A stretch of DNA of 64,000 nucleotides. Origin: a virus (taxonomy: Duplodnaviria; Caudoviricetes). The stretch lies in the IMG/VR virus record IMGVR_UViG_3300031998_000004. One strand, 5' to 3'. Within the stretch, counting starts at the first letter, position 1. Each line of letters starts with the position of its first letter. The translations under genes were made by a program, and so were the position numbers. Below are positions 1 through 60,230 of this stretch, in pieces. The notes under the pieces were generated by a model. The model searched no databases and had not been told where the DNA came from. It was given only the letters and a program-made list of their open reading frames with translations.

Positions 1-227
1 TGAATATCACTATTTATTTTAATAGGAGTCGGAAAATTCTTTTTAAGTAATGATGTTTTAATAGTATTTGTCAACCATTCATAATCCCTATCAGTGTGTC
101 GTTGATCATCATTTTTATAATCACCATCGATAATGTATACTCCTTTCACTCGATAATAATCACCAAATGTAGGAATATCTTTTTCCACAAGATCTTTATC
201 AAATAAGCTTTCTACTAATGACTTCAT
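1..227 (-). CDS. Partial ORF (runs off window); MKxLxE-SLFD family putative internal head protein
   Basis: Manual translation MKSLVESLFDKDLVEKDIPTFGDYYRV..., open to position 1; not in ORF track. Confidence 0.8.
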   Translation of the reverse strand, partial: MKSLVESLFDKDLVEKDIPTFGDYYRVKGVYIIDGDYKNDDQRHTDRDYEWLTNTIKTSLLKKNFPTPIKINSDI

Positions 228-240
228 ATATAAAAAATAA

Positions 241-261
241 AGGGAATCATTTAGATTCCCT
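241..261 (-). terminator. Intrinsic terminator hairpin
   Basis: AGGGAATC-attta-GATTCCCT followed by T-rich tract on minus strand. Confidence 0.65.
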
Positions 262-402
262 CGATTTCCTGGCGTTTCTTTTTGGACCATCTAATAAATC
301 ATTCCAATAAGGATCAATCTGTAGGTCCTTTAATAGAAAGGACTTCAAGTCCACCTCTGGAATGTTTATCTTCGGTACTTTTGGTTTCCTGTCTTTCGCC
401 AT
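247..402 (-). CDS. Small basic hypothetical protein (51 aa)
   Basis: ATG 2 nt after upstream stop; MAKDRKPKVPKINIPEVDLK... Confidence 0.5.
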   Translation of the reverse strand: MAKDRKPKVPKINIPEVDLKSFLLKDLQIDPYWNDLLDGPKRNARKSRESK

Positions 403-404
403 CT

Positions 405-1103
405 CTAACCTTCAGTAATTTCATCATCTCCGTCTACGGCAAGGTGAGTACCACAAGGACATACAGGTCCTTTCTCACCGTACTTCTTAAACATCTTCTT
501 GGTTACCTTACAGCTCCATCCACAGTTAGGACAAGTGTATGTGTATGTGTTCTTTTTCTTCTCACCGCTCTCATTCTTATGAATCACGACAGGCTTACCA
601 GGATAAGCACCCCACTGTCCAACCAACCTCTTATATACCTCCTCAAGAATATCTCTTAAGTAGTTTGTGGGATGATAACTATTATAGGGTTTGTCAAAGT
701 AGTACTTCTGTGCGAGTGCCTTAAACTTCTTTGTACTAGCTTTCGGTTCATTAAAGAACGCATGAATACACTCAAGAGCGAGCGCACCTAACATATCAAT
801 AGGATCTTTGATGGTGTAAGACACAGATATGGTTGTGGGAAAGAAATCCTCAAGAGTCACATCTTCACCATCAAATGGTTGTACACACTCAGTCATTTTC
901 TGGCCACCACATTTACCCGCGCCTATCTGATATCCGTGATTAAGAATATCAAGATCACCTTCAAAGAGCTGTGCATCAAGCTCTTCTACTGCATGCCTGA
1001 GCCACTCCTCACGTGTCATTCCATCCCTGGGTTTTGCTGTTGCTGTAAGTTTTTCAATCTCTGTTAGCGGGCGAATCTCCGCATTTACTTTAGCTTCTGT
1101 CAT
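405..1103 (-). CDS. SprT-like protein with degenerate HExxH and C-terminal zinc ribbon
   Basis: LALECIHA at the position of HExxH; C-terminal CPNCG...CPCG. Confidence 0.5.
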   Translation of the reverse strand: MTEAKVNAEIRPLTEIEKLTATAKPRDGMTREEWLRHAVEELDAQLFEGDLDILNHGYQIGAGKCGGQKMTECVQPFDGEDVTLEDFFPTTISVSYTIKDPIDMLGALALECIHAFFNEPKASTKKFKALAQKYYFDKPYNSYHPTNYLRDILEEVYKRLVGQWGAYPGKPVVIHKNESGEKKKNTYTYTCPNCGWSCKVTKKMFKKYGEKGPVCPCGTHLAVDGDDEITEG

Positions 1104-1123
1104 ATTAAAATATATTAAAATTG

Positions 1124-1417
1124 TTAATTTTCTTTGCCGAGATTTTTTATCTCCTGTAACTGATTGATAATGACATCTATAGACTTATCATCATAAAATA
1201 TAAATCGTACTGGATGATAACTATCAATATCTTGTCTTTCGTCATCAGGAATATTTCCTCCTATCTCATACTGTTTGTCCGCAGGGCTCAGAAAGAGTTC
1301 TCGTTCGATCTCTCCTGTTTCGTTATTTATGTTAGCGCATCCACCAACAATAATCTTTCCACCAAACACCACAACCAATTCACCGTCTTCGGTTGCATAA
1401 AATCCACTTTCTACCAT
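1124..1417 (-). CDS. Hypothetical protein
   Basis: 97 aa ORF co-oriented in operon. Confidence 0.7.
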   Translation of the reverse strand: MVESGFYATEDGELVVVFGGKIIVGGCANINNETGEIERELFLSPADKQYEIGGNIPDDERQDIDSYHPVRFIFYDDKSIDVIINQLQEIKNLGKEN

Positions 1418-3882: not shown

Positions 3883-4263
3883 TTAATGATTTTTAAGATA
3901 TGTTTTAAGATTTTCCGTTATTTTATCGATACCATAATAGATATCCATCTTACAAAGAGCATCTCCGGTAAAATCGTATGCTTCTGTTAATGTATTATTG
4001 ATCTCCCCAATCATTTTATTTGCAGAAGTTTGACCATTCATATTAAATTGTGTTACCCAAGCACAGAATGTTGGAGGAAAGTAAATCAAAGAAGCAGATC
4101 CTCTTTCCACTGTGATTATCTTCTCCCAGAATTCTGAGTCTTCCCCCCATTTAGACGGGGCACCCCACTGTTTAGATTTCTTGAACCCCATCTTCCTGAG
4201 GAATCGTTCCGAGATCTTCTGATTACCTCCCCGAACACTATTATATGTATCAAATACGCCCAT
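3883..4263 (-). CDS. Hypothetical protein, N-terminal MGVFD (tag variant)
   Basis: ORF in operon; start resembles M[SG][ILV]F tag. Confidence 0.7.
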   Translation of the reverse strand: MGVFDTYNSVRGGNQKISERFLRKMGFKKSKQWGAPSKWGEDSEFWEKIITVERGSASLIYFPPTFCAWVTQFNMNGQTSANKMIGEINNTLTEAYDFTGDALCKMDIYYGIDKITENLKTYLKNH

Positions 4264-6597: not shown

Positions 6598-6888
6598 TCA
6601 TTTGTCTTCTTTTTTGAATTCCATTATATTAAAGTCATTATCCAATACTCTCCTGGCGTAATCGGGTATCTTCAATCCCAACTTCCTCCATATAAACTGC
6701 ATCACAATCTTACTCGTGTCTTTAATGAGTTTGGTTCGTTGTGGATCCATGAAGTATATTCCTCCAGTGTTAACCTTACCCATCTTATCGTCCCACTTCT
6801 CCAGGACTAACTTGAGCTCATCTTTAATCGCTTGATAAAGAAGCTCTTCACTGTTTTCCTGTGGTGTATTTTGATTGAATATTGACAT
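6598..6888 (-). CDS. MSIF-tag hypothetical protein
   Basis: Starts MSIFNQN. Confidence 0.75.
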   Translation of the reverse strand: MSIFNQNTPQENSEELLYQAIKDELKLVLEKWDDKMGKVNTGGIYFMDPQRTKLIKDTSKIVMQFIWRKLGLKIPDYARRVLDNDFNIMEFKKEDK

Positions 6889-7997: not shown

Positions 7998-8813
7998 TTA
8001 ACAAAACTGCTCTTTTTCTTTAGTATCACCAATGTATTCTAATTCGACTCTCAATGAAATACTAACCGGGCATCCAACCTTTGTCCACACACATTGCGCT
8101 AGGTGTTGATCACCATACAACCGACCGAGTCTGTTTTCTTCGAAATCTGAGTACGGCCAAAATATATCCCCGAGTTTTTTATGTCCGTTAATTTTTATAG
8201 TAATGATGTATGAGTTAAATATATCATTAGTACCCGAATATGTAAACGATTCAAGATTACGCACAAATACCCGAGCATCTAAATCGGGATCCAGCCAATT
8301 CTCAACTCCTTCTCCCAACGAAGTCATTACCATATTCCACCACTTCCTTTCCGACACATGTCGTTCATCGGTTTGATACTGGTAGTATTTCATTGGATAT
8401 TTGCCATCAACGTACATCCACGGAGCGTTACGGTCCTGAAGTGGTATAAAGATATTATCCATATGTCCTTGTAGTCCGGCCGCGACTAAAAGCCTTATAT
8501 CTCTATATTCGGTTTTCTGAAGAAGTCCTTCTTTGAATAAAGTAAAATACTGTATCTCTCCCTGATTACAGACAAATCCGACATCATACATCGGCCATTC
8601 ACTCAAACGATCTATCTCAGGAAAATCCGGAACCACTTGCGTACCAAACATAAACCGTTCACTTTGAGGACAGTGTTCCCAATGTGTTGTGCCCGACTCC
8701 TTTGCGGTTGTCGGTTGCCAAATACTATCTCCGTTGGGATACGTAACATTAACTATCTTTACTACTTTCTGTAGCAACCCACCCTGGGCTAAATCCTCAT
8801 CAAATAAAGACAT
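7998..8813 (-). CDS. MSLF-tag hypothetical protein
   Basis: Starts MSLFDEDL. Confidence 0.8.
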   Translation of the reverse strand: MSLFDEDLAQGGLLQKVVKIVNVTYPNGDSIWQPTTAKESGTTHWEHCPQSERFMFGTQVVPDFPEIDRLSEWPMYDVGFVCNQGEIQYFTLFKEGLLQKTEYRDIRLLVAAGLQGHMDNIFIPLQDRNAPWMYVDGKYPMKYYQYQTDERHVSERKWWNMVMTSLGEGVENWLDPDLDARVFVRNLESFTYSGTNDIFNSYIITIKINGHKKLGDIFWPYSDFEENRLGRLYGDQHLAQCVWTKVGCPVSISLRVELEYIGDTKEKEQFC

Positions 8814-9480
8814 CGTTATCTGTGTTTGAATGTTTTCTATGAAGTCTTAAAAAGAATATTATGGTTGGTCTGGATGATGCCCATAATTTTGTTTTATCCA
8901 TATCGCACCAAAAACACTCCTCATTATTTATGGAGTTTATTGTGATTTCAACCTTAAATCGATTCACATCCGATAAATACCCATTATCAATAGAAGTACA
9001 ATGGACATCTGCAGAACACTCAGACCATATATGTCTTTTAATATTCTGTTCCATGTGACTTGCAACAATATTCCAATATGTTGAATATTTTGCTAGGGAT
9101 ATAAAAGGGCTAGTTGACCAATAAGGTCCGTAGCCGTGGTTTTCTGTGTCGGTTATTACCTCATCCGGTTCAGTCAGCGGCAGTGCTATGTCGAACTCAC
9201 CATCGAGACCGGCGAACCTTATAATATCTTCAAGTTTTCTAATATTTATATCAAATATCTCGATATAACTAACCCATCTACGTTTATCTCCTACATAGCA
9301 ATCAATTTTGTTCTCGGTTACCACATAATCCAATATGCCACGATCTCGAGGCCCAAGCATTCGTGCTCGTGTAGTATATCCGATTGCATCTCCTTCGGAG
9401 GCTTTGCAGTTTTTGAAATAACAAAAGTCAACACTGAAAGCGTTGTACATTTTGTCTTTGAAGTCACTGAATATACTCAT
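8800..9480 (-). CDS. MSIF-tag hypothetical protein
   Basis: Starts MSIFSDF. Confidence 0.8.
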   Translation of the reverse strand: MSIFSDFKDKMYNAFSVDFCYFKNCKASEGDAIGYTTRARMLGPRDRGILDYVVTENKIDCYVGDKRRWVSYIEIFDINIRKLEDIIRFAGLDGEFDIALPLTEPDEVITDTENHGYGPYWSTSPFISLAKYSTYWNIVASHMEQNIKRHIWSECSADVHCTSIDNGYLSDVNRFKVEITINSINNEECFWCDMDKTKLWASSRPTIIFFLRLHRKHSNTDNDVFI

Positions 9481-12167: not shown

Positions 12168-12848
12168 ATGAAAACCCTAGTAGAAAGCATATTTGGTGAT
12201 AATGTTACTAACAATCCCAATGTAACTACCGTGCAAGATGCAGAAAAGGTTGTTGTGGATACTCTTGAAAGGTGTCTTAAAATGAAATGTCTTGATATTG
12301 CTGAGTCATCTCAATTTTTTCCTCAATTAAAGCAGAGCATGATATGGAAAAATGGTAAGTGGGCACTTGCTATGTGTCCTATGGATGAGGATTCTCAAAA
12401 TGTGTCTACAAACATATACTTACAATACAATCTTGATTGGCCCAGATACATTAAACCCGAAGAGAAAACGAAAATAGAAACATCAAATTTTTCTATTAGG
12501 ATTCTTATAAGAATCAGTCCCTGGAGAAACGATCAAATTATATTGAAAGAAATTGGTGTTGAAGTATATGAAGGATTTGGTTATGAATCTGGTACAGAGA
12601 TTTTAGATACTTCAATTTCCCATCATACTCGTCTCAAAGATATTATATTTAACACAAACACATTAGGTATAGTGAAATTCTTAGGAGAATGCTTTTTAAA
12701 GTTTAAGATGTACGTAGAGAATGATGTGTTTAATGAGGTATTCCGTCATCTTTATGCTAAACAAACAACCAAAGGTCAAACCAGTAGAAAACATGATAAT
12801 CTTGCAGCACAGGAGTTATCAAGAGTATTTAATACAATTGTAAAATAA
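12168..12848 (+). CDS. MKxLxE-SIF family putative internal head protein
   Basis: MKTLVE-SIFGDNVTN. Confidence 0.8.
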   Translation: MKTLVESIFGDNVTNNPNVTTVQDAEKVVVDTLERCLKMKCLDIAESSQFFPQLKQSMIWKNGKWALAMCPMDEDSQNVSTNIYLQYNLDWPRYIKPEEKTKIETSNFSIRILIRISPWRNDQIILKEIGVEVYEGFGYESGTEILDTSISHHTRLKDIIFNTNTLGIVKFLGECFLKFKMYVENDVFNEVFRHLYAKQTTKGQTSRKHDNLAAQELSRVFNTIVK

Positions 12849-13501
12849 TGAAACCGTTAGTAGAAAGCTTATTTGATAGTGATCTTGTTCAACAAGGCGT
12901 ACCCATAAATATAGACTATGTATACGAAGAAGTATTTGCTGCTCTTAAAAAGTATAACTTTGAAGATTGTCCATATGAGAAATTAAATACTGGTTATGTT
13001 CCGAGCAAAGATATCATTATGCCAAATTCTCATAGTGATTATTTTTCATTTACAGTTTTACGACCGAATTACAAAATTAAATCATATGCGTCTGGAAGAT
13101 TCGGTACTGCAGAAGAAGTACTTACAGGAATATCTTTTGTAATAGGAACAGACGATCTTAAAGATGACGACACCAGTGTATATCTCCTCCGAGCTGACGT
13201 TCATTGGGTCGATATTGTGGGAGGTATGTGTTTTTCGACAAGTAGACTATTGTGGAGTGGAAATGATTGGGAACATTACTCAAAACTCAAAACAAACAAG
13301 ATAACGTCGGAAACTCTCGGAGATATCATCGACTATATCAAGTCGCGAATAGATAAATGTTTTCAAATGGTCACGAGAGATCGACAAGAGATATATAATA
13401 TCAAATTTGGACAAGCAAACAATGGTGGTGACCCGTGGTTAAAAGGTAGAAAAGATAATGTTTGGTATTTAGAGAAAATGAAAAAGGGACTCCGGAGATA
13501 G
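12848..13501 (+). CDS. MKxLxE-SLF family putative internal head protein
   Basis: MKPLVE-SLFDSDLV. Confidence 0.8.
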   Translation: MKPLVESLFDSDLVQQGVPINIDYVYEEVFAALKKYNFEDCPYEKLNTGYVPSKDIIMPNSHSDYFSFTVLRPNYKIKSYASGRFGTAEEVLTGISFVIGTDDLKDDDTSVYLLRADVHWVDIVGGMCFSTSRLLWSGNDWEHYSKLKTNKITSETLGDIIDYIKSRIDKCFQMVTRDRQEIYNIKFGQANNGGDPWLKGRKDNVWYLEKMKKGLRR

Positions 13502-15994: not shown

Positions 15995-16030
15995 GTATAA
16001 ATATACTTATATTACTGTGATTATTTATCC

Positions 16031-16300
16031 ATGAAGGATATTAAACAATATATACTTGAACGAGACGCTAATACCCTCCCCGCTCGTATCACAGTAGATG
16101 ATGATAAGGAGAAGGGTATCTTGAAGGTTTCTTTTGGAAAGAATGGTTGGGGTTTGAGTAATGAGTTCTCACAGATTGGAGAGATCGTCCAGGAGTACTC
16201 GAGACAGAATAACATCTATATCAGAAAATGTATCATTGACGAACTTGATGATGTATATGATATAGAGTTTACGTATTCAAATAAACACTTTAACGACTGA
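16031..16300 (+). CDS. Putative internal head protein (CTS-like leader)
   Basis: MKDIKQYILE-R. Confidence 0.65.
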   Translation: MKDIKQYILERDANTLPARITVDDDKEKGILKVSFGKNGWGLSNEFSQIGEIVQEYSRQNNIYIRKCIIDELDDVYDIEFTYSNKHFND

Positions 16301-16788
16301 TGAAAAGCTTACAGGAAAGTCTATTTGACAAAGACATAATCCAGAACTCTGATGTCAGACTTGGGGAACTCTATGAGATATCTCCTGTCATTCACTACTG
16401 TGGTGTTACCAACAACATCCGTGAGGTGTTGGGGATGTTTGATGAGAAGGCTTGGGCTCGCGCAAAGTGGCCTCTTCACGTTCGCGAAGATTGTAGTTTT
16501 ATTGAATACTGGTCGGATATTGAACCAAGGAGACTTGTTCCTTTTATAAATATGTTCTTCAATCTCCCGATGTCAGACATTAATAAACTCTTTGAAAAAC
16601 CATCTACTGGAAGCGAGCATCTTGCAAAGTGTCTTGAGAAGTATTATTCATATCATGGTGCGAAAGCAAAGCACATCTATATTGTTGGCCGAAAATTAGA
16701 TAAAGATAGACTTATTGAAATAACAGTGTATAAGGATATTCTCGTTCCTAGTCCGAGTAGTATAAAATTAACATTTGAGAAACGATGA
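16300..16788 (+). CDS. MKxLxE-SLF family protein; paralog of 16785
   Basis: MKSLQE-SLFDKDIIQ; shares LGELYE.SPV, IYIVGRKL, SPSSIKLTFEKR with next gene. Confidence 0.85.
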   Translation: MKSLQESLFDKDIIQNSDVRLGELYEISPVIHYCGVTNNIREVLGMFDEKAWARAKWPLHVREDCSFIEYWSDIEPRRLVPFINMFFNLPMSDINKLFEKPSTGSEHLAKCLEKYYSYHGAKAKHIYIVGRKLDKDRLIEITVYKDILVPSPSSIKLTFEKR

Positions 16789-17279
16789 AAACTCTAATGG
16801 AAAGTCTACAAGAAAGTCTATTTGACAAAGACATAGTAAAGGGCTCTGAGGTAAAACTTGGAGAACTTTATGAGTTGTCTCCTGTTAGACACCATAATAT
16901 GGTAATTAACAGTATACATAAAGTCCTCAATATGTTTGATGAGAAAAAATTGAAGAAAGAGAATTTTACTTTTAAGACAAACAGAGATCATGATTTCATA
17001 GACCTTTATGGATATCACACATGCATTGCTGAGTTTGTTGATATGATTCTTAATATACCTATGCAAGATATCAATAAGATATTCGAAGAACCATACAATG
17101 GAAACAAGCATATCGCTTCTACTATCGAGAAGTACTATTCAAACGGTGGATATTATGCAAAAAACATTTATATAGTAGGTAGAAAACTTAGTGCGGGAAA
17201 ATTGATTGAACTCACAGTATATGAGAATATCAATAATAGTTCTCCATCAAGCATAAAATTAACATTTGAAAAACGATGA
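16785..17279 (+). CDS. MKxLxE-SLF family protein; paralog of 16300
   Basis: MKTLMESLQE-SLFDKDIV (doubled LxE). Confidence 0.85.
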   Translation: MKTLMESLQESLFDKDIVKGSEVKLGELYELSPVRHHNMVINSIHKVLNMFDEKKLKKENFTFKTNRDHDFIDLYGYHTCIAEFVDMILNIPMQDINKIFEEPYNGNKHIASTIEKYYSNGGYYAKNIYIVGRKLSAGKLIELTVYENINNSSPSSIKLTFEKR

Positions 17280-17851
17280 AGACATTATCGGAAAGTCTAT
17301 TTGATAATAATTTAGTAGAGAAAGATATACTTGAGAATCCCGAGTTTAAGAAATGGATTAATCAACCGAATACTCTTTGGTATATTTATTATTACTGGGA
17401 GTGTGGGGAAGAAGATTGGTTAAATGATTTCATGAAAGAAGATTGGCGAGTATACAAACCACTTGTTGATGAATTGTTGGAAATAATAACTAATTCTATG
17501 GGTAAGGTGTATACTTGGTATATGATTAATTTAGATCAATTTTATTATTCCGATGAGGTAAAAGACAAGTTTGCTGATGAGGCTGAGTTTTATGATATGA
17601 TGAATGACGCGAACTCCATAATTATTCATAGTCGCTCGGAGACAAAAGATGGAATATCGAAATCTGGTTTTCGTGGTCCTCTTCCGAAAAACAGCAGTGT
17701 GACTGCTCTTCTTCAACAACTTGAAGAGAAATTTACAAAACCCGGGCTTGTTGACGGAGGATTTTTCCTCACTAATGAAGATACTATAATAGTACTAGCG
17801 TTTCCAAAAAGAACCCCAAAAAATATACTTAAATTATTTAATCTCGATTAA
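17276..17851 (+). CDS. MKxLxE-SLF family protein
   Basis: MKTLSE-SLFDNNLVEKD; distant paralog of 18065. Confidence 0.85.
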   Translation: MKTLSESLFDNNLVEKDILENPEFKKWINQPNTLWYIYYYWECGEEDWLNDFMKEDWRVYKPLVDELLEIITNSMGKVYTWYMINLDQFYYSDEVKDKFADEAEFYDMMNDANSIIIHSRSETKDGISKSGFRGPLPKNSSVTALLQQLEEKFTKPGLVDGGFFLTNEDTIIVLAFPKRTPKNILKLFNLD

Positions 17852-18060
17852 TGATACCGATCAAATCATATATGGCTGATGCTCTTGTAGGGAAACGATT
17901 ACACTTCAGGTGCGATTGTCTCCTAAACATAGACGTAGTCGGAACAGTCAAAGGGTGGAGCCTGTATCATGATGAGATTATATGGGATGTGTATACCGAT
18001 GAAGGTAAGTTTATTAGGATTGGTGAGAATCATCCAAATATGTTTATAAATGAATTGTAG
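17851..18060 (+). CDS. Small hypothetical protein
   Basis: 69 aa, translationally coupled. Confidence 0.7.
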   Translation: MIPIKSYMADALVGKRLHFRCDCLLNIDVVGTVKGWSLYHDEIIWDVYTDEGKFIRIGENHPNMFINEL

Positions 18061-18064
18061 CAGC

Positions 18065-18640
18065 ATGAAAACCTTACGAGAAAGCTTGTTTGATAAAGAT
18101 ATAATCGAGAAAGACCCAATTGATTTTACTGAGTTTAAGAATCTTTGTAAGAGACCCGAGACTCGTGCGGATATATTTAAGATTATCATGGCTATTATGA
18201 TGACTCCGAATAATTACATACCCGATTGGTACATAACTACTTATAAAGAAAATGATAGAGTCCTGGACTATATTATTAATGCTTTGCGTGATCAATTCAA
18301 AAAGAATGGTTGTACTTGGTTTGATGTTGAAGATGGAGACTTCGAAGAAGCTGGTGATGAGATGACTGATGAGGAAATCGACAAGGCAAACGAATGGTTA
18401 AGAGAGTTCTTCAATAAAGCAATAGAAGATGATTGTGGATGTAGGTTTAAGATATGTAAAGGTAAGATTCCAGACTTCCTCAAAAAACTCTTCAAAAATA
18501 CAGGGTATTGGTTCGATAAACTGAATCAGATAGATACTTGGGCTGTTGGGTATTATAGAAATGGAGAACAAATCCTATCATTCTATGGCTGTCCAAAAGG
18601 TCTCGATCCTACCGTTAAAAAACTATTATATAATCAATGA
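18065..18640 (+). CDS. MKxLxE-SLF family protein
   Basis: MKTLRE-SLFDKDIIEKD (start re-assigned). Confidence 0.85.
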   Translation: MKTLRESLFDKDIIEKDPIDFTEFKNLCKRPETRADIFKIIMAIMMTPNNYIPDWYITTYKENDRVLDYIINALRDQFKKNGCTWFDVEDGDFEEAGDEMTDEEIDKANEWLREFFNKAIEDDCGCRFKICKGKIPDFLKKLFKNTGYWFDKLNQIDTWAVGYYRNGEQILSFYGCPKGLDPTVKKLLYNQ

Positions 18641-19188
18641 AGACTCTCAGAGAAAGCCTGTTTGATGATAATCTTGTATCAAAAGATATAAGATTGGGAG
18701 ATCTGTATGAGTTGGAGTTTGTTCATTTACAAAGTCCTTATTGTTTTAATAAACTATATACAAAAAGAATTATCTCACAGAATTCGAAATTGGCTGACGA
18801 AAAGGACCTTAAGAAATATTGGTATTATTATGGTTCGGATAAGAATTATAAAACCCCACCACCAGAGATGGAAGCCGTGAGTAATGTAATTATTGGAGAA
18901 ATAGAAAAATTTCCAATGTATAAAGCACAAGGCGAACCACGAGGAAATGGGTTTTTGTATGTGTTTATTCAAGGACCAGATGACCCGTTTTCTAATGCAC
19001 TGAGACAATATTTACACGAATTTATAGACCCATATATTGTTGCGATGCAACCACATCGGATTTATGTGGATACTAATTATAAGTATCATAAACAAGAAGG
19101 ATACATTCAAGTTAAAATTGGTAAAAACACAAATCGAGGAAGATCAAGTATTCCAGATAGTATAGAATTTGTATTTAGAAAAAAATGA
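18637..19188 (+). CDS. MKxLxE-SLF family protein
   Basis: MKTLRE-SLFDDNLVSKD. Confidence 0.85.
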   Translation: MKTLRESLFDDNLVSKDIRLGDLYELEFVHLQSPYCFNKLYTKRIISQNSKLADEKDLKKYWYYYGSDKNYKTPPPEMEAVSNVIIGEIEKFPMYKAQGEPRGNGFLYVFIQGPDDPFSNALRQYLHEFIDPYIVAMQPHRIYVDTNYKYHKQEGYIQVKIGKNTNRGRSSIPDSIEFVFRKK

Positions 19189-19844
19189 AACACTTAAAAA
19201 CATATATAGAATGTGATGCTGGAATCACCGCGACTCCCACAAATACCATGGGTATGGGTAATCCAGGAGAGATCGCTCCAGACACTCTTTCCGAACCCAT
19301 CGGTGGAACAGCGAAGTCTGAAGTGGAGAAGAAAAAGAAAAAGAAGAAAATGAAGTCTCTGGCGGAATCTCTTTTCGATATTGACAATAATGTTACAAAC
19401 GACTTAACTTTTGGTGGAACATTTAAGTTGGTTAATATAGAAACAAAAGACTCATTATCTAGGCCAGGACATGGACAAACTAGAGGCAGAATGGTGAAAA
19501 TGAAAAGTAAACCTGAGGATATGTACAAGGTGAGTTTAATATCAAAACACTCTGGCTTGAAGGTCAATAAAGATATGGAGTCAATAGCAGCTGCTCTAGC
19601 TGTTATAGTTGAGAAAATCCCATTTACTGCTGAGTCTATAAAAATGTCTTTATATGATTTTTCTCAAACAACTTTAAAACCACTCAAACAATACTATTCA
19701 TCTAATGTAGGAGCTGGATATTTGAGTATGGGTGCTGATGTATATGCACACACACCAGACTGGAAGAGAGATGTCGATGTGTTAGATGCCCATGAAGTGG
19801 ATATAGATTTCTTGAACATAAAATTACACTACGTTAAAAAATGA
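19185..19844 (+). CDS. Fusion of CTS-like peptide/poly-Lys segment with internal MKSLAE-SLF protein
   Basis: MKHLKTYIE-C...KKKKKKK-MKSLAE-SLFDIDNNVTND; in-frame ATG at 19350. Confidence 0.8.
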   Translation: MKHLKTYIECDAGITATPTNTMGMGNPGEIAPDTLSEPIGGTAKSEVEKKKKKKKMKSLAESLFDIDNNVTNDLTFGGTFKLVNIETKDSLSRPGHGQTRGRMVKMKSKPEDMYKVSLISKHSGLKVNKDMESIAAALAVIVEKIPFTAESIKMSLYDFSQTTLKPLKQYYSSNVGAGYLSMGADVYAHTPDWKRDVDVLDAHEVDIDFLNIKLHYVKK

Positions 19845-20368
19845 AGACATTAGTGGAGAGTTTATTTGACGACAATATTAAAAAAGACATCCATCTCGGA
19901 GACTTACTCGAACTCGAAAAATGGGATACACCAGAGGCATGGGATGACGATATAATATCTAAAATGTTGAGAGCAAACTACGATATGAAGAAAGCAAAAT
20001 CCCTCATAAACAAACCCAAGTGGAAGAAGTTTTTAGAACCATATCGTGATGAATATAAAAAACCCCCAACTAATTATATTAATGCTAAATACAATTGGGA
20101 AACGATTTGTTGGTATTTGACTTGGGTGGCGCTGAGTTGTGGTTCTGGAAAAGAAGCAGAGACAAAACTTGTAGAATATTTGAAAGATATATCTTACGAA
20201 GATGAATTGGCTGATGAATTCACAATCAATGAGGTGGAAGTAATATCTCTTAATCGATCATTTATGAACGGGCTACCAAGAATGATAGTATTCAAGTTCC
20301 ATACGAGATACGACAATATAAAAGAAGGAGTTAAAATACTTTATATGACATTAAAAAAGAAGGACTAA
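19841..20368 (+). CDS. MKxLxE-SLF family protein
   Basis: MKTLVE-SLFDDNIKKD. Confidence 0.85.
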   Translation: MKTLVESLFDDNIKKDIHLGDLLELEKWDTPEAWDDDIISKMLRANYDMKKAKSLINKPKWKKFLEPYRDEYKKPPTNYINAKYNWETICWYLTWVALSCGSGKEAETKLVEYLKDISYEDELADEFTINEVEVISLNRSFMNGLPRMIVFKFHTRYDNIKEGVKILYMTLKKKD

Positions 20369-20613: not shown

Positions 20614-21024
20614 CTAACACCCATGCGCATATTTACCGAAACGTTTGTATAAAATAGTCGAAATCTTCTTTTTAACGTCTCGGTTCACCTGATAGTAACG
20701 TTTCTGGTTGTAAACCAAGCAAGGAAGTTCCAGACCCCTGATAGTCTCTTCAAAGACCGGGTAAAGATGATATGTATCCATTCCGGGTACATCTCCATAC
20801 ATTGAACGAAAGATACTATGTTCTTCTTTGAAGGTCCCCGTAGGAATCTTGGTGGTCTTCTTTGCTCCCCAAAATAATTTTTTCTGTCTGGGAGTTAACG
20901 CAAATGAACCCTCACGCGGAATCAGGGTACTACCACTGTTGGATATCTTATAGTTCTTAAGGATCATCTTATCGCTCTCTGCCTGGAGCTGTTTGGGATC
21001 AAGGTGGTTGTCAAATACACTCAT
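20614..21024 (-). CDS. MSVF-tag hypothetical protein
   Basis: MSVFDNHL. Confidence 0.8.
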   Translation of the reverse strand: MSVFDNHLDPKQLQAESDKMILKNYKISNSGSTLIPREGSFALTPRQKKLFWGAKKTTKIPTGTFKEEHSIFRSMYGDVPGMDTYHLYPVFEETIRGLELPCLVYNQKRYYQVNRDVKKKISTILYKRFGKYAHGC

Positions 21025-21027
21025 ATT

Positions 21028-21453
21028 CTAAAATTTATAAATTTTCTTATGTTGAAAGGCTCTTCTTCTTATTACTTGAGAGATCCAATATTCATTAAAT
21101 GCATTATATAAAGGCCAAAGTACCGCTTTATCAAAATAAATTTGATTCTTAAAAATCAGTTTTCTTATGTCCGGGTGTCCAAACCCATGTGCGAATTTAG
21201 AAAAATCCCATTCCGAAGGAAGATCATAATTATCAAGCATCCTTGCTATATCAGCAACACCTTCATTCATATAAAAATCCCAAACAACACTTATTGGAAC
21301 AAACATCCTACCAGAGCGGCTCCTAAGCGCATCAGTAAATGTTCCAGACTTCTCTACTAAAACAATTGCTCCATAATCGGTTGAAAAAAACCAATTGTAA
21401 TGCTCAAGAATGAAGTCGTCTTGATTGGTGATATGATCACTAAATATACTCAT
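21028..21453 (-). CDS. MSIF-tag hypothetical protein
   Basis: MSIFSDHITN (start re-assigned). Confidence 0.8.
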   Translation of the reverse strand: MSIFSDHITNQDDFILEHYNWFFSTDYGAIVLVEKSGTFTDALRSRSGRMFVPISVVWDFYMNEGVADIARMLDNYDLPSEWDFSKFAHGFGHPDIRKLIFKNQIYFDKAVLWPLYNAFNEYWISQVIRRRAFQHKKIYKF

Positions 21454-21461
21454 ATATTTAA

Positions 21462-21899
21462 TTACCAAATAACTTCAGAATCTTTAAGTATATATAAAAA
21501 CAATTGCTCCGCAAGATGACTCATCATTCCATGAGGAATAATATAGAAAGGAGTATCTTTGTATGTAATAAATTCACCAATATCACTAAATAACTTCATC
21601 GGATATATAACAACGCCCACATTATGTTCTTCTAGTTCCCGTTCGACTATAAATTTAAATTGCTCATCAGTAATCTTCCCAATATATCCCGGACACATAG
21701 TATATATAATGTTCATCAATTCATCAAAACAAAGTAATCTCTGACCATTATATTCTTTTTCATATTCGCGACGTGGAAGAAGTTCAACAATAGTGCAGTG
21801 TCCTTTTCCGTCCGGCCCCACAGCTGGTATAAACCTTTGATTTATTAAACGGTATTCGGCTTCTTTGTCATACCCGTCTATTGAAGAAAATATACTCAT
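21462..21899 (-). CDS. MSIF-tag hypothetical protein
   Basis: MSIFSSID. Confidence 0.8.
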   Translation of the reverse strand: MSIFSSIDGYDKEAEYRLINQRFIPAVGPDGKGHCTIVELLPRREYEKEYNGQRLLCFDELMNIIYTMCPGYIGKITDEQFKFIVERELEEHNVGVVIYPMKLFSDIGEFITYKDTPFYIIPHGMMSHLAEQLFLYILKDSEVIW

Positions 21900-22366
21900 T
21901 TCTTATGCGTGCGTTTGAAATACTTCGAGTTACACGTTTCTTTGGATATATAATTAAACATCGTCTCAATGATTCTATTTTTAAGACTAGATGGATTGGC
22001 ATCATACAAATCGGTTTTAATATAGGTGTCTCCTTTATATTGCAAAACGCCACACTCCGTAATCATTCTATTAAATCGAACCATAAGATTTCCCTCGTCC
22101 AGTTTACTTAATTCAATCTTGCCTCTGTCTTTTTTCGAGACAATATCTCGTATACTATCGAGTGTTCTACCTACATAGTAAAAGAAAACATACATCGGGT
22201 TATAATATACACTACCATGAGGATAACTAAACTTACCATCAAGATTTTTAGGAAAGAGTCCTTTCCGAATCCTTTTCCCCTTCACATAATCCCATTCGAG
22301 ATTGTAAAGCTGCTCGATAGTATCATCGTTGGTTGCCTGGATGTTGTCGTTGCCAAATATACTCAT
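21896..22366 (-). CDS. MSIF-tag hypothetical protein
   Basis: MSIFGNDNI. Confidence 0.8.
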   Translation of the reverse strand: MSIFGNDNIQATNDDTIEQLYNLEWDYVKGKRIRKGLFPKNLDGKFSYPHGSVYYNPMYVFFYYVGRTLDSIRDIVSKKDRGKIELSKLDEGNLMVRFNRMITECGVLQYKGDTYIKTDLYDANPSSLKNRIIETMFNYISKETCNSKYFKRTHKK

Positions 22367-22369
22367 GAC

Positions 22370-22828
22370 CTACTTATAATCGTAATTAAGTTTATACTTA
22401 TATATCGGATATATACTACTTATATACTTTGCAAAGGACCTAATCAACCAATAATGATTTTGTTTTTCGTAATATTTGTGTTTTTTGTAAGTGATGTATT
22501 TTCCGTTTTCAATATCCTGAAAAAAGATCTTTTCAAGATCACGGATATGCCTCAACTCAACGTGTTTTCTAACCTTAATGTTTGCTGCTCCTTTTTTGTG
22601 AGATGTTCGAAGATCTATTTCAATCATCGTAACAGCCCCCTGATATATATCCCAAAAGTCAGTATTTCTCTTATCTACATACTCTACACCATCATATCTT
22701 ATAGACCACACATCATTATATGCAGGGTCTTCACTCTTGAAAAAACTGTATCTTTTCATCTGGTCCGCGTGTTCTTCAAGAAAGGCGTCGTTAATTCCTT
22801 CTTCGGTTGTTCTATCAAATACACTCAT
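22370..22828 (-). CDS. MSVF-tag hypothetical protein
   Basis: MSVFDRT. Confidence 0.8.
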   Translation of the reverse strand: MSVFDRTTEEGINDAFLEEHADQMKRYSFFKSEDPAYNDVWSIRYDGVEYVDKRNTDFWDIYQGAVTMIEIDLRTSHKKGAANIKVRKHVELRHIRDLEKIFFQDIENGKYITYKKHKYYEKQNHYWLIRSFAKYISSIYPIYKYKLNYDYK

Positions 22829-22831
22829 ATC

Positions 22832-23290
22832 TTATTCAAGTGGTCCGTCCCAATGGAACTTGTGTTTCTCACAATACTTTAAAATCAAGTTAATTTCATA
22901 CATGGTATGAAAACTACGAACATCCCGCCAACAAAAATAGAGGAGCCCTTTGTACATATGCGCTCTTATTTCTCCATTATCATATGCCTTTTGAATAGCT
23001 CGGAGGTAGTGTCTTTTATCTATACGAATATTAGAAAATTCCTCTACATGATACTGTTTTGCCATCTTATAGGTTCTCCAAGGCCTCCAATCATTATACG
23101 CAGCTATAGCAGTGCAGTAATCTCCGCGATCCCATATATCATGGGGTGCTTTGTTCATTCTTGGATATAACCATCCATCGCTCCTACCCCATGCACCATT
23201 CCACAAGGGAGCGTCCGAGTCCTCAGATCTTTCGTACCACTGGCTAAGGATTTCGTCAGATTCTACTATATGATTGGTAAATATACTCAT
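22832..23290 (-). CDS. MSIF-tag hypothetical protein
   Basis: MSIFTNHIVE. Confidence 0.8.
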   Translation of the reverse strand: MSIFTNHIVESDEILSQWYERSEDSDAPLWNGAWGRSDGWLYPRMNKAPHDIWDRGDYCTAIAAYNDWRPWRTYKMAKQYHVEEFSNIRIDKRHYLRAIQKAYDNGEIRAHMYKGLLYFCWRDVRSFHTMYEINLILKYCEKHKFHWDGPLE

Positions 23291-23685
23291 AGTCCGTGAT
23301 GTCTTAAAATTATGTCTCTATCCATATCGTTTTCAAAACGACATAAATCTCCAACATTGTAATAAGTCTCTCCATTCAGAATCAGGATTCTAACATCACC
23401 GCTGGCTACCTTTCTGGAGAGTTTGTTGATATAAGTCTGTCTTCTAGGTTGATAGCTGATTCGGAACCCAGCAAAGTAGTTTCGTTTTCCGGCGAGATAA
23501 GTCTCCCAAGCTTCTTCAAGTATAATATAAGAAGTGTGTTTGTATGTGGAGCCACGATCTCCCTTATCGATAAGGTAAGTCCGGTCTTCTCTCTTACCAC
23601 GATCAACATTGGTATAATATCCCAACTCGAACTTTTCGAGAATTATATCGTCTGCTTTGGCTATATGATCTTCAAATACACTCAT
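23287..23685 (-). CDS. MSVF-tag hypothetical protein
   Basis: MSVFEDHIAK. Confidence 0.8.
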   Translation of the reverse strand: MSVFEDHIAKADDIILEKFELGYYTNVDRGKREDRTYLIDKGDRGSTYKHTSYIILEEAWETYLAGKRNYFAGFRISYQPRRQTYINKLSRKVASGDVRILILNGETYYNVGDLCRFENDMDRDIILRHHGL

Positions 23686-36617: not shown

Positions 36618-38045
36618 ATGAAACATTTACCGCAATTTATATTAGAATCACTTTTCCTCGAAGCTAATATGGCAAAGGAAACCCTTATACAAGAAACTCT
36701 TACTTGTATGTTTTTTGATGCCTGGTTTAACATGGACGAACGATTTGATAACATTAACGAGATTGTAGAGTATTATAATGCTAATAAAGATCTTATAGAA
36801 AAAATTGCAAGTGGTGCTGGATTGACCATTAATGATTATGATGCGTTGTTTTTGGACTTAAATACCAAAGGTAAAAGTTCAGCGAAGGCGAAGCAATGGC
36901 AGAATTCATTTATATATCAGTGTGAGTCGTTTGAGAATTGGATAAATTCTCATAAGTCTTTTGATACGGATCTTGTATTTGTTCATCACGACACATCTAT
37001 CGCAGTACATAATGGAAAAATAGAAAATGGTTGGGGAATCGCTGATAGAGTTGATATTGGAACGAAGAAATTTGGATATAAGGACAAAGACATATATCAG
37101 AAAGCAGACATATATGCTATTGTAAATAAGATAGGAAACACTCCTGAAGATGATATCAGTGAAGAAGTATCATACTGGGTAAAGTCAATCAATGGAGAGA
37201 CCTCAGATAAGTTTGTAGGAATATCTCTTAAGAAACTTGGACGTGCTCTCGGACATGTACATACATACGGAATTGATCAATCGGTTATTAACATTGATCC
37301 GAAGTCAATCAATTTCAAATTTGATATATTCAATAATGTAGAATTTGATCCGGCACAAGGAGTACTCAAACCGGGCATAGTAACTACTTCTGTATTCTTT
37401 GATTTCGATGATGGGCAAGAAAAGAAAGAATGTAAGATTGATATTAGAGCTAATAGTAAAGGTCCTAAACATGCTATGATAGACCCTCATGTTAGCTATG
37501 GGGCGGCTGTGACAGTTGAGATGGCTATGAAGGGAGCAAAAGCACTTGCTGGTAAAGCACAGTCACTTATATCCGAGTGGATCGGTGAGAAGATGGAATC
37601 CGCCAAGACTAAAGGTTCTGCAGATTATAAATCCAAATTAAATTACATCAAGTCAATCTTCGCTTCTGAGGGTGTAGACTTTGATGTGACATTAGATGAT
37701 GCAACAACAAAATTCCTTAATTTCCTTTCTGCTAATAACGAGAAGATCATGGATATGTATAAGTCATTTGAGAAGAACGGAAAGAACCTTGAGTCAATAC
37801 AACCTTATCTTGACGAACTAGGAATCAATATGGATGGTTCTATAAAGGATATAATGGATGTACTATATGCTTCTACAAAATGGCATAACGTCTCTTGGAA
37901 AATCCTTTGTGATGTTGAAGCAATTGCAACGTACACAAAACAACATGGAATTAACGAAGCAATAACCCAAATATATAAGACCTGTAAAGGTATATCCGGG
38001 AAGGATTCAAAACCACATCTTCCATATGTTTTGATTGGAGAGTAA
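36618..38045 (+). CDS. CTS-leader protein with PD-(D/E)xK-like nuclease signature
   Basis: MKHLPQFILE-SLF; QE..T, KADIY...VGISLKK. Confidence 0.55.
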   Translation: MKHLPQFILESLFLEANMAKETLIQETLTCMFFDAWFNMDERFDNINEIVEYYNANKDLIEKIASGAGLTINDYDALFLDLNTKGKSSAKAKQWQNSFIYQCESFENWINSHKSFDTDLVFVHHDTSIAVHNGKIENGWGIADRVDIGTKKFGYKDKDIYQKADIYAIVNKIGNTPEDDISEEVSYWVKSINGETSDKFVGISLKKLGRALGHVHTYGIDQSVINIDPKSINFKFDIFNNVEFDPAQGVLKPGIVTTSVFFDFDDGQEKKECKIDIRANSKGPKHAMIDPHVSYGAAVTVEMAMKGAKALAGKAQSLISEWIGEKMESAKTKGSADYKSKLNYIKSIFASEGVDFDVTLDDATTKFLNFLSANNEKIMDMYKSFEKNGKNLESIQPYLDELGINMDGSIKDIMDVLYASTKWHNVSWKILCDVEAIATYTKQHGINEAITQIYKTCKGISGKDSKPHLPYVLIGE

Positions 38046-41115: not shown

Positions 41116-42969
41116 ATGAGTTCATTCAATCCAATAAAAGAAGATAAAGAAGGAGTAATCGCAAAACGAACTATATGGTCTACCCAGTCGGTTAATATGG
41201 CACTTCGTGGCCTAGAACAAGGACGTAAGTTGGTCGCTAATCCGTTCTACGAGAACAACACAAAAATTCTCAAAGGGGACTTGGTGTTTGAGAGAACTCC
41301 TGAGGAGATTGCCGAATGGAAGCATTGTGCAAACGACATCATATATTTTGTAGAGAAGTATTGTAAGTTGATGACTCCAGAGGGAATTCAAAATATCGTC
41401 TTACGAGATTATCAAGAAGCATACTTGCGTCACCTAGAGAAACATAGGTTATCTGTGATGCTCTCTGCACGACAGGCTGGTAAGACAACGACATCTGCAC
41501 TGTTTATGTTGCATTATATATGTTTCAACTTTGATAAGAATGCACTCGTGTTGGGTAACAAAAGGAAGACCGCAATTGAAATACTTGACAAGGCGAAAAA
41601 GATATTTATCGAACTCCCGTACTTCTTGAGACCCGGTGTATATAAATGGAACGAAGCTGAGATCGTTCTAGATAACGGATGTAGACTGATGGCGGAAGCA
41701 ACCACGATCAACTCGGGTATTTCATTCACGTTCCACTGCGTCCTCGCAGACGAGTTTGGGCACATTGCTCCAAACATCTTGGATAAGTTCTACGAAAACC
41801 TATTTCCTACTATCACTGCTGCAAAGGCACGATTTATGATTACCTCCACACAGAACGGATATAATCTCTTTTATCGTATATATAAAGCAGCTGAAGCTGG
41901 GGAGAATGAATATGCTGCGTTTAAGGTTGACTGGGATCAGATACCTGAATGGAACCCCGATAAGCGTTGCTGGGAACCGAGAACCGAAGAGTGGCACCGG
42001 ATGCAGATAGCAAACTACGGCTCTGAAGAAGCCTTCAATCGTCAGTTCGGTACGGACTTTGATGTGGATGCTAACACATTGATTAATAAGAAGATACTAA
42101 AGACCTGTCAACACGATTGTCAAGAATTCATTAATAAAGACATTCCCGGAGTGTCACTAGCCAATCATTATTATTGGAGTCCTGACTACGACCCAGTATC
42201 ACAGCTCAGAAAAGATTATATTATCGCACTCGGAGACCTGGCGGAAGGAGTAGAGAAAGACTATACGCATTTTAATATATGTAGGCTTATTGAACCTGAC
42301 TCCGATAAACTTGAATGTGTGGGGTACTACAGGTCAAATAACGTAGATCGAAAGGATATTGCGAAGTCTCTTATGGAACTCTGTTCGATTCAATGTGACC
42401 AGAACCACACTCTTCTTTCATTCGAGAGAAACACCTACGGAGAACTCTTCCTTAAACACATAGAGGACTTCGAAGAGAAAAACACCATTCCTGGATTTGA
42501 TAAGAGTGTGTTGGTTAAGTTCTTTAATGATAGTGGAACGAGATTTGAATATGGTGTTAGGATTACTCGCGGAAACAAATCCAATATGTGTATTCTCTTT
42601 AAGGAGGATTTTGAGAAGGGGCGAGTTATAAACAAATCAACAATCTTCTGTTCCGAGCTTTTGAACTTCTCCGATCCCGAAGAGAAAGGTGTTTGGAAAG
42701 CTGCGTTTGGTCATGACGATGCTGTGATGTCTATGATTCAATATGAAGCGGTAAAGAAGACCCTTCAGTTTACACTCCTCAAACAGGAATTCGATTCAAT
42801 GGCCGGGCAAACCGATACAAGTTATAATCCATATTCTAATATATATGATACATTGACTCCTACCTCAGATGATATTTATGGGAGATTTTTAGAATCGGGG
42901 TGTAAAACGTTTGCTGAGTTTGAATCAAAGGAATCAGAGAGACGATTAGGTGGATGTAGATTGATGTAA
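41116..42969 (+). CDS. terL: Terminase large subunit (T4 gp17-like)
   Basis: LRDYQ, SARQAGKTT Walker A, LADEF Walker B, ITSTQNG, GDLAEG and HDDAVMS nuclease motifs. Confidence 0.93.
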   Translation: MSSFNPIKEDKEGVIAKRTIWSTQSVNMALRGLEQGRKLVANPFYENNTKILKGDLVFERTPEEIAEWKHCANDIIYFVEKYCKLMTPEGIQNIVLRDYQEAYLRHLEKHRLSVMLSARQAGKTTTSALFMLHYICFNFDKNALVLGNKRKTAIEILDKAKKIFIELPYFLRPGVYKWNEAEIVLDNGCRLMAEATTINSGISFTFHCVLADEFGHIAPNILDKFYENLFPTITAAKARFMITSTQNGYNLFYRIYKAAEAGENEYAAFKVDWDQIPEWNPDKRCWEPRTEEWHRMQIANYGSEEAFNRQFGTDFDVDANTLINKKILKTCQHDCQEFINKDIPGVSLANHYYWSPDYDPVSQLRKDYIIALGDLAEGVEKDYTHFNICRLIEPDSDKLECVGYYRSNNVDRKDIAKSLMELCSIQCDQNHTLLSFERNTYGELFLKHIEDFEEKNTIPGFDKSVLVKFFNDSGTRFEYGVRITRGNKSNMCILFKEDFEKGRVINKSTIFCSELLNFSDPEEKGVWKAAFGHDDAVMSMIQYEAVKKTLQFTLLKQEFDSMAGQTDTSYNPYSNIYDTLTPTSDDIYGRFLESGCKTFAEFESKESERRLGGCRLM

Positions 42970-57869: not shown

Positions 57870-57872
57870 AGC

Positions 57873-58952
57873 TTAACAGTTTTGAATTCCTTTTTTATAT
57901 GCGGCAGCCGCTGCTGGTGTGATTCGCGAAAGCACAGAATTGATTCTGAACTCCTCGAGATTGTATGCATTACAGTAAGACATAGAACTCTTAATTGCAG
58001 ATTCAATCTGTTCTGTCCTTTCCGCGAGCGTACAATCTACCTGGACGACATCAATAATACCTTCACTGTTCTTGAGAGTGGTGTTACCCATGTCTATCTG
58101 TGCTCGTTTAGTAGACATACCCCAGTACTCTTTGAATCGAACTGGATTAGATGTGCCTACCTGAGTGGCGTCACAGAGCACAGGACTAGCACTTTCTTCA
58201 ACCGAACAAAGGAACCGCCCACACATCACCGCATCCGCGCCCAGCGCAAGTGCCTTGCAGATATCTTCACTATCACCTATTCCACCATCAGCAATGAGCT
58301 TCAGGTAGCGTCTACCATTGAACTCAAAGGTGCTCCTGTAGAAGTGGCTTTCTGCAATGAGAGATGCCATTGGATAGTGTACACCCGTCTGTGCAGAAGT
58401 TGTACATACACTACCACCACCGATCCCAAGACGGACCCAATCAGCAAAGTCGTTATATGCGATGGTTGTGATAGTTCGTGGGTTAGCTATATTACCAACC
58501 ATTATCTCGGACCCCGGAGCAATAATATCGAGTCTCTCACGGAGAATCTTGCCTACCGTGATGACATCTTCCATATGACCATTGGCCTGGTCAATACAGA
58601 TTTTAACCGGGCCGAAATTCTTAAAGAATTTAGAAAACTCCGCCAATTCATCAATAAGACGTTTCGTTTCATGAAGACCGAAAGCAACCCAGGTACCTGT
58701 CCTCAAGAGCTCGAGTCTCATACTATAATCAATAGTCCTAGGGTAGATGGCATGAAAGTCTTTATTAAAAAGATCGAAGTTCTGCTCGTCTACCACACAG
58801 TTCATAGGAGAGACAAACACAGGGAGTTTTCCATCGGACATCCTCGCGTTACACTCTTTTGTACGAGAATGAACCTTTGTCTGTTTTGAAGGAATGATAG
58901 CGACCTCACACAGTTCAAGGAGAGGTTCTTGTATGTTTTTGATTATATTCAT
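57873..58952 (-). CDS. IMP dehydrogenase / GMP reductase family protein
   Basis: IDQANG, VGNI, GIGGGSVCTT catalytic Cys loop, IADGGI, ALALGAD.VM.G, YWGMST, SEG. Confidence 0.88.
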   Translation of the reverse strand: MNIIKNIQEPLLELCEVAIIPSKQTKVHSRTKECNARMSDGKLPVFVSPMNCVVDEQNFDLFNKDFHAIYPRTIDYSMRLELLRTGTWVAFGLHETKRLIDELAEFSKFFKNFGPVKICIDQANGHMEDVITVGKILRERLDIIAPGSEIMVGNIANPRTITTIAYNDFADWVRLGIGGGSVCTTSAQTGVHYPMASLIAESHFYRSTFEFNGRRYLKLIADGGIGDSEDICKALALGADAVMCGRFLCSVEESASPVLCDATQVGTSNPVRFKEYWGMSTKRAQIDMGNTTLKNSEGIIDVVQVDCTLAERTEQIESAIKSSMSYCNAYNLEEFRINSVLSRITPAAAAAYKKGIQNC

Positions 58953-58955
58953 ATA

Positions 58956-59399
58956 TTATTCGTTTATAATTCCGTATTCCTTAGCACAATTCCAGTTAAT
59001 CTTAAATACATTATCATGATCAAGTAACCACACGTCAAAACCGAGGATTTTGAACTTATAAGTTATCTTTTTAATCATCTTTTCACCAGTCGCCGTACCT
59101 TGATTGTATGGAGTTATTCCAAATATCTCAGCCGGAAAATCTGTAGTGAATCTACTTACACTTACAGTGTGATTGTCTAGTCCCAGCTTCACATAATAAT
59201 ATATATAAGATACTACATCATTTATAACGGAATCTATTGTTTCTTCAGGAATAAAATCAAGACATTGAAAGTCATCCCGGCTGTACATATAATCTACAGC
59301 GGAATGACCTATATTCTTACTCACACTATCATGCAGATTGAAAATTGTCTGTGCGGTGATAGTAGGAGATTCTATTATATCTTTATCAAAGAGACTCAT
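58956..59399 (-). CDS. MSLF-tag hypothetical protein
   Basis: MSLFDKDIIE. Confidence 0.8.
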   Translation of the reverse strand: MSLFDKDIIESPTITAQTIFNLHDSVSKNIGHSAVDYMYSRDDFQCLDFIPEETIDSVINDVVSYIYYYVKLGLDNHTVSVSRFTTDFPAEIFGITPYNQGTATGEKMIKKITYKFKILGFDVWLLDHDNVFKINWNCAKEYGIINE

Positions 59400-59791
59400 G
59401 CGTCAGTAGAAATTCCACCACCGAGATCTGTCAGTGGACTTGCTACACCGTTCAACGGATTTTCACTATCTCCGTCTTCCGGAAGTCTATATCCACAGAG
59501 ACCAGCGAGCTCGTAACAACGATTATCCAACAGGGTCTTACACGACTCGCGAATAATCAAAAGCACGTCGTTAGGGAGATCAATCTCAAGAGGGAAGTGC
59601 CAGAAGTTAGGGAGCCACCTGAGTTGGTACCCCACAGTCTTGACGAGCGTCGGACTCTCCCGCTTAAATTCAAATCCACTCTGATCCAGGAAGATCTGAA
59701 TCTTCTCTATCTCTGCCGAGAGAGGAATCTCTGTCTTAAAAACATCAAATGCGTGTTTCCTGAGTTTCTTGATTTCGTTTTCTGTCCACAT
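59396..59791 (-). CDS. Hypothetical protein
   Basis: 131 aa ORF in operon. Confidence 0.7.
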   Translation of the reverse strand: MWTENEIKKLRKHAFDVFKTEIPLSAEIEKIQIFLDQSGFEFKRESPTLVKTVGYQLRWLPNFWHFPLEIDLPNDVLLIIRESCKTLLDNRCYELAGLCGYRLPEDGDSENPLNGVASPLTDLGGGISTDA

Positions 59792-59810
59792 ATTATAAAT
59801 TGTTTAATGG

Positions 59811-60230
59811 TTAATTTTCTTCTTCCCAATTGATTTCTATATACTTACCAAGCATCGTTGGGTCGTCATCGTATACGTCCCATTTTATTTTCATCTTGAA
59901 TCCGCGTTCCTGAAAATATTTACAAAACTCAACGAACTTCGGTTCTAGGTCTTTCCCGTGAATACCCTTGTTATCATACATTAGTTTTTTCACGTTTGTC
60001 CCTTTCTTAAAAGCACTAGTTAATCCCAACGCTTTCGGACAAATCCTATGATAATAAACCACACGCGGAACGGAATACTTTACTTCATCGTAAATAACTC
60101 CCAATAGTTTATCACAAGTGGTCTCGAGAGGTTCTCCTTCTGGTGGAACCATCCGTTTACTTATGAGATCCCTCAGAAAACTTGCGGTGATGGGGTTATC
60201 CGCGTTTATATTATCGTTAAATATGCTCAT
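59811..60230 (-). CDS. MSIF-tag hypothetical protein
   Basis: MSIFNDNIN (start re-assigned); distant paralog of 58956. Confidence 0.8.
   Translation of the reverse strand: MSIFNDNINADNPITASFLRDLISKRMVPPEGEPLETTCDKLLGVIYDEVKYSVPRVVYYHRICPKALGLTSAFKKGTNVKKLMYDNKGIHGKDLEPKFVEFCKYFQERGFKMKIKWDVYDDDPTMLGKYIEINWEEEN

Follow-up and report, generated by a model that had tools for sequence, protein, structure and literature searches.

Why do dozens of proteins with dissimilar bodies, all encoded by one T4-type phage, begin with the same short peptide, and what could such a peptide be for? The question is raised by a 64,000 nt stretch of the virus record IMGVR_UViG_3300031998_000004 (the whole of this stretch is referred to as the window), the proteins of which were placed on a 240,263-bp contig. 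The peptide, here called the tag, can be written as [SG]-[ILV]-F-[DSN]-x-[ND]-[IL]-[ITV] and is found in two settings: at the start of genes that begin M-[SG][ILV]F (the leaderless class), and as the same peptide behind a leader ending in L-x-E (the leadered class). The initial annotation had proposed that both classes mature to one free N-terminus that serves as an address label. Our analysis establishes that the feature is real, selected and clade-wide; the leadered class appears to be of a known kind that resembles T4 Alt, whilst the leaderless twin class would be the new part.

Distribution and conservation of the tag

In total, 32 minus-strand genes of the window start M-[SG][ILV]F, against 0.14 expected from the window composition and its 114 open reading frames (ORFs); no such start occurs in a control set of 462 ORFs drawn from genome loci of bacteria, mostly Bacteroidota. 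All 32 were borne out where they had been reported: four are dispersed (3883..4263, a Gly variant; 6598..6888; and two genes of 271 and 226 amino acids within 7998..9480), seven form an array downstream of the gp32-like protein (20614..23685), nineteen form a second array downstream of RNase H (26818..34008), and two single genes lie at 58956..59399 and 59811..60230. The 12 leadered cases were likewise recovered, with one correction: the gene at 1..227, which reads MKSLVE and then the tag and is truncated at the edge of the window, lies on the minus strand, with the remaining leadered genes on the plus strand. The latter comprise two genes within 12168..13501, the main cluster at 16300..20368 (16300, 16785, 17276, 18065, 18637, 19185/19350 and 19841), a gene at 35346..35672 and a doubtful member at 36618..38045, in which the leader is followed by SLF without the acidic extension and with Leu-Glu-Ala instead. 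Three further leadered genes are found directly past the left edge of the window. The exact peptide matches between the two classes that had drawn attention to the tag are also present (12168/30114, 18065/58956, 16785/27967 and 12848/29282).

Loci of related phages yielded 207 distinct tagged proteins (201 once false frames were removed) in about 60 families, none of which combines leadered and leaderless members. Across the tagged proteins, the consensus is Ser (88%) or Gly (12%), then I/L/V, a Phe in 100%, D/S/N, any residue, N/D/H, I/L and I/T/V; position 2 is Ile in 47%, Val in 28% and Leu in 25% of leaderless tags and Leu in 82% of leadered ones. The leaderless arrays occupy fixed sites, after RNase H and after gp32, with a gene content that is different in every genome; for the nineteen-gene array, both content and order differ among relatives. 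Since more distant relatives hold few leadered and hardly any leaderless genes, the leaderless arrays look like a clade-specific expansion, and degenerate DNA scans of viral contigs returned the leaderless tag only from two close relatives already known.

Selection acts on the tag as a peptide. When six-frame translations were queried with tag-masked bodies, the tag proved exact in 82 of 84 true homologues found by the body alone, at body identities down to 25%; the two exceptions are one MSSIF and one SVF after Val (possibly a GTG start). Homologues of 17276 keep the tag in 52 of 52 cases, and in an alignment of 51 homologues L4 and E6 of the leader and S7, F9 and D10 of the tag are invariant, with positions 3 and 5 varying. 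For the leaderless 30721 family, the tag is present in 23 of 23 full-length representatives from a library clustered at 50% identity. The peptide is thus not freely mutable among orthologues; free mutability would have spoken against an address label. At the codon level, the Phe shows 101 synonymous and 0 non-synonymous pair differences within families (in a set chosen by the tag), and Ser codons show TCN/AGY switches, in a tag whose codons are strongly biased towards AGY, ATA and TTT. The earlier statement that residue 2 is only ever Ser or Gly requires some qualification: the restriction was built into the search pattern, but it does hold in the orthologues found without the tag, apart from the MSSIF case.

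Some simpler causes were considered and rejected. Coupling of start and stop codons as ATGA is insufficient as a DNA-level cause, as the stop overlap occurs in only 11 of the 32 leaderless genes and the other 21 still keep Ser/Gly; a Bacteroidetes -7 promoter word within the tag codons fits one codon combination only; and a membrane-anchor helix of the PspA/EIIA-like M-G-[LI]-F type was set aside by reasoning, the tag being acidic with a non-amphipathic hydrophobic spacing.

The bodies behind the tag are folded domains of 70-270 amino acids, and most are unrelated, as had been claimed. The exceptions are 16300/16785 (51% identical), 31122/31474 and 32059/32872 (both about 33%) and the pairs 22832/23287 and 30383/30721, which are linked via relatives; a few neighbours also give weak profile matches, so that remote kinship among some neighbouring leaderless genes is possible. 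Cross-family profile searches gave 21 hits against 8 in a reversed control at E<0.01, and hhalign gave 2 cross-family scores above 30 (one pair, in both directions) against 0. AlphaFold models with confident bodies (pLDDT near 90) were obtained for one leadered family (17276) and one leaderless family (30721): the former shows a five-strand mixed sheet among helices and the latter three helices with a three-strand meander, and in both the tag is of low confidence (pLDDT below 50 or about 57) and lies outside the folded body. A fold search with the 17276 model gave no clear match (best Z 4.2), and that with the 30721 model a weak likeness to gp25/TssE and to a kinase lobe (Z 5.3-5.8, TM 0.54-0.58), which is a common arrangement. 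Pfam, PHROGs and NCBIfam supplied no name for any of 50 tagged proteins, and Atlas feature hits for tagged proteins were all below 0.9; the sole tagged body with a named family is a DUF285 domain, on one of the leadered genes beyond the left edge. With about 60 families, cross scores near the reversed control, two differing models and one DUF285 body, the tagged proteins do not appear to form a single paralog family with one shared fold, which was the other outcome that would have counted against an address label.

Leaders, fusions and exchange of tag DNA

Prohead proteases of the gp21 type cut after the leader motif in T4, and methionine aminopeptidase takes off Met before Ser or Gly. Within the leadered class the hydrophobic residue 4 and the [LI]-x-E cut motif are present, and the tag is always preceded by [ILMY]-x-E; the 32 leaderless genes have no such leader and begin directly with Met and the tag. 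The leaders in front of the tag are six residues long or are complete T4-like leaders of ten residues, and the tag is also found inside fused polyproteins. The proposal of two routes to one free N-terminus therefore agrees with the placement of the tag in every setting, the exposure of this end being a prediction. Position 1 of the tag is never N, D, E or T, residues that are frequent in the polymerase tails discussed below, and this absence fits a need for processing. Leader and tag are separable, because capsid-type leaders without a tag also occur and serve as internal controls (16031..16300 and, with a full ten-residue leader, 35683..36117, both plus strand).

The 19185..19844 gene (plus strand) is a fusion in which a small leader-bearing peptide is read through into a tagged body. 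In seven sequences of relatives, the internal L-x-E and the tag are kept before two different bodies, whilst the inner Met is replaced by Ile; the small peptide is a separate gene in a distant relative and is fused to differing tagged bodies across genomes. The peptide itself (19185-19350) is conserved; besides its capsid-type leader it has a poly-Lys tail and an MGMGNP motif, and the major capsid proteins of relatives contain a similar GMGNP motif in their N-terminal part. At 48188-49309 (minus strand), L-S-E and then SLF occur at residue 81 of a 373-aa protein, which may be another internal tag or a chance match.

Tag-coding DNA is copied from gene to gene and exchanged. A doubling of the tag by a ten-residue insertion precedes no fewer than four unrelated families and, in one relative, occurs on three genes; the DNA of the insertion is near-identical where checked, and one long leader is common to two unrelated families of one genome almost base for base. 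Because the doubled tag, the shared long leader and the 19185 peptide recur before unrelated bodies, we infer that new bodies may be acquired by recombination between tag-coding sequences.

What the tag may do

The explanation that we favour, at somewhat less than an even chance, is that the tag is a docking motif at the mature N-terminus, recognised within the infected cell by one partner. It would be a short linear motif that heads the mature protein as part of a flexible arm. By the example of T4 biology, leadered proteins would be late products that enter the prohead, are cleaved behind L-x-E by a protease of the gp21 type and are then injected; leaderless proteins would come from the transcription units of RNase H and gp32, and methionine aminopeptidase would remove their Met. 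Both classes would then show the same free end to one common partner, which is the weakest step, and this partner would place a changeable set of small proteins at one site. The expression context is that the leaderless arrays follow RNase H and gp32, and the main leadered cluster follows TATAAATA, a T4-type late promoter consensus (15996..16003, plus strand; a consensus match only). An analogy is offered by the IAP-binding motif of Reaper/Hid/Grim and Smac, an N-terminal motif on unrelated proteins that is exposed by Met removal or proteolysis; it is eukaryotic, of other sequence, restricted to few proteins and without homology to the tag. RiPP-type shared leaders similarly place a conserved N-terminal piece on variable bodies, but the bodies here are folded and no dedicated modifying enzyme was found beside the arrays in the loci examined.

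Extended to the whole phage, the docking motif becomes an addressing system, which we put forward only tentatively: one N-terminal peptide, freed by the head protease or by Met removal, would dock some 50 interchangeable proteins on one hub of host or phage origin (perhaps the host clamp, apparently also used by the phage polymerase), with new bodies loaded by recombination of tag DNA. Should one partner indeed read the tag, this would open some 60 families of uncharacterised phage proteins to study and would show a phage exchanging accessory genes with the delivery address retained.

Several points weigh against a docking motif. The single partner is putative; the two classes differ in their preferred residue at position 2; one leadered cluster is on the same strand as early genes; and codon bias suggests that common descent of tag DNA (or a start-region preference) adds to the likeness between tags. 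T4 Alt shows that hydrophobic residues following the cut can be an ordinary part of a capsid leader region. Furthermore, the major capsid proteins of relatives have candidate cut sites that read [IV]-x-E and then G-[LI], so that positions 1-2 of leadered tags may reflect protease preference; gp23 was found in three relatives, the close relative G001 included, and the S77 protease only in the more distant G002.

Given the T4 Alt precedent, the tag need not be a label that is read in the cell and could instead make up one half of an extended capsid signal. In this main rival, which is possible though rather doubtful, the retained half would act in the virion, where it would bind the core of the prohead or guide ejection; leadered and leaderless proteins alike would be head cargo, the latter needing no cut. 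T4 Alt loses six residues (PMC5694885) and continues LFDE after the cut at E6, and in six of eight sampled Alt homologues an L-x-E close to the start leads into [VL]F[DE] or [VL]L[DE], a seventh having it further in. The ten-residue targeting signal of T4 depends on residues 4 and 7 and still permits targeting with Asp at 10 (PMC9026906); leader plus the first four tag residues also make ten residues, and the doubled tag seen on several unrelated bodies would raise avidity ahead of cleavage. Against this, the tag is kept behind complete ten-residue leaders and in leader-bearing fusions, where a further packaging signal would be superfluous. Many leadered genes lack the tag, the leaderless arrays follow replication genes, and the strict Ser/Gly at leaderless position 1 has no obvious use if the free end is irrelevant.

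The initial annotation knew of no described system like this one, and here T4 Alt, with its six-residue leader and then a conserved [LV]FD, is the closest precedent and had been missed; for the leaderless twin class or such a two-class system, no description was found in the literature, of which coverage was incomplete. Likeness to Alt and to the capsid-targeting sequences (CTS) of IPI, IPII and IPIII lies in a short N-terminal [LI]-x-E leader on unrelated, variable proteins of a T4-type phage and, for Alt, in the removal of exactly six residues before [LV]FD. The differences are an extra Ser/Gly before the hydrophobic pair, a retained part of about eight residues common to dozens of bodies, and a larger class that has the retained part and no leader, for which no T4 counterpart was found. 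The leadered class seems to work like T4 CTS/Alt cargo, as a putative member; the leaderless class is not a member of this family. Across Straboviridae, [VL]FD after the gp21 site is conserved in Alt proteins (L135, L139-L146). Our finding thus points to a function for residues left after head-protease cleavage, conserved even in T4 Alt and testable there.

The best named candidate for the docking partner is the beta sliding clamp of the host, an unlikely identification that takes up about one third of the weight we give to docking as such. As a special case of docking, the tag would be a shortened clamp-binding motif, with Leu/Ile-Phe entering subsite I of the clamp and tethering proteins to replicating DNA. 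The family B polymerase (PolB) of the phage, which is split by a 376-aa gene (P0177 / L133:8472-9383), ends I-E-M-S-L-F-D-F (P0177), and this tail holds the first five residues of a leaderless tag. Among the PolB tails of the family (P0053-P0292), the motif starts with Gln in 188 of 236, mostly as Q-[MLI]-x-L-F with S/G common at x; neither gp45, gp44 nor DnaN was found in five relative records, one of them 97% complete. Because PolB ends in a bacterial clamp motif and no gp45/gp44 was found in relatives, the T4-type polymerases of this family probably use the host clamp, and a T4-type polymerase that appears to run on a bacterial clamp is of interest separately from the tag. The delta subunit of E. 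coli binds the clamp by AMSLF without Gln, and LF alone can bind; the pocket disfavours Ile/Val at the Leu position (PMC11139829).

With the clamp motif (Q-phi-x-[LM]-[FL]; delta AMSLF) the tag shares the S/G-L-F core. At motif positions 4-5, Phe is invariant and is preceded by Leu in 82% of leadered but 25% of leaderless tags. Gln at position 1 and an aliphatic residue at position 2 are absent after processing, and before it only x-Glu or Met is present; PolB tails have Leu in 230 of 236 and never Val, whereas 75% of leaderless tags have Ile or Val. The tag also has a conserved extension (positions 6-8) without counterpart in PolB tails, and is N-terminal after processing. A divergent phage clamp may, moreover, have been missed in the relatives. 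Complex prediction of a Bacteroidales DnaN with the mature 17276 tag (residues 7-42) scored 0.02 against a mark of 0.32, which gives no verdict and is not evidence either way.

It is improbable that the tag governs turnover, as an N-terminal degron or as the ligand of a protease adaptor, and so sets the time at which injected and early proteins are removed. The two classes would both have an early role, and six relatives have a host-like ClpP gene immediately behind gp32 or the second leaderless array (L029:15011-15661; L001, L022, L023, L025, L038), but this window has arrays and no ClpP, the motif is unlike the IGF-loop pattern, and Ser/Gly ends are normally stabilising.

We give as little credence to a structural or translational relic of a very old paralog expansion or start-region effect, with no shared partner: the arrangement of genes in tandem, several evident paralog pairs, the faint profile links between neighbours, biased codons and the ATGA overlaps would suit it, but the synonymous-only Phe changes, the TCN/AGY switches, the 21 genes that keep Ser/Gly without overlap, a tag lying 6-10 codons inside leadered genes or heading a DUF285 body, and two models of different architecture with the tag outside the fold do not.

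Gene neighbourhood and host

The window codes for a T4-type large terminase (41116..42969, plus strand), which marks the kind of phage, together with a gp32-like ssDNA-binding protein (23811..24902, minus strand), an anchor of the arrays in relatives, and a T4-type RNase H (5'-3' exonuclease; 34008..35102, minus strand); the closest cultured match has only 32% identity. RNase H has a conserved C-terminal I-E-S-I-F motif that may or may not be related to the tag; its D-I-E-S-I-F tail is kept in close relatives and could form a helix for interaction. The C-terminus of the gp32-like protein reads DLPF, as does the C-terminal tail of bacterial SSB, and this end is kept in all relatives examined. 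The host is probably a rumen Bacteroidales, as close relatives carry a ClpP with about 70% identity to that of Bacteroidales genomes and the top match comes from a yak-rumen assembly.

Other genes of the window include an untagged homologue of the CBASS inhibitor Acb3 at 4504-5328 (minus strand; PF25187, E 3e-18) and QueC at 42998-43744 (minus strand), which may belong to a 7-deazaguanine pathway together with the PTPS and radical-SAM genes located up to 10 kb beyond the left edge. At 62501-63974 (minus strand) there are four tRNA calls, one of them an unusual tRNA-Ile(AAT).

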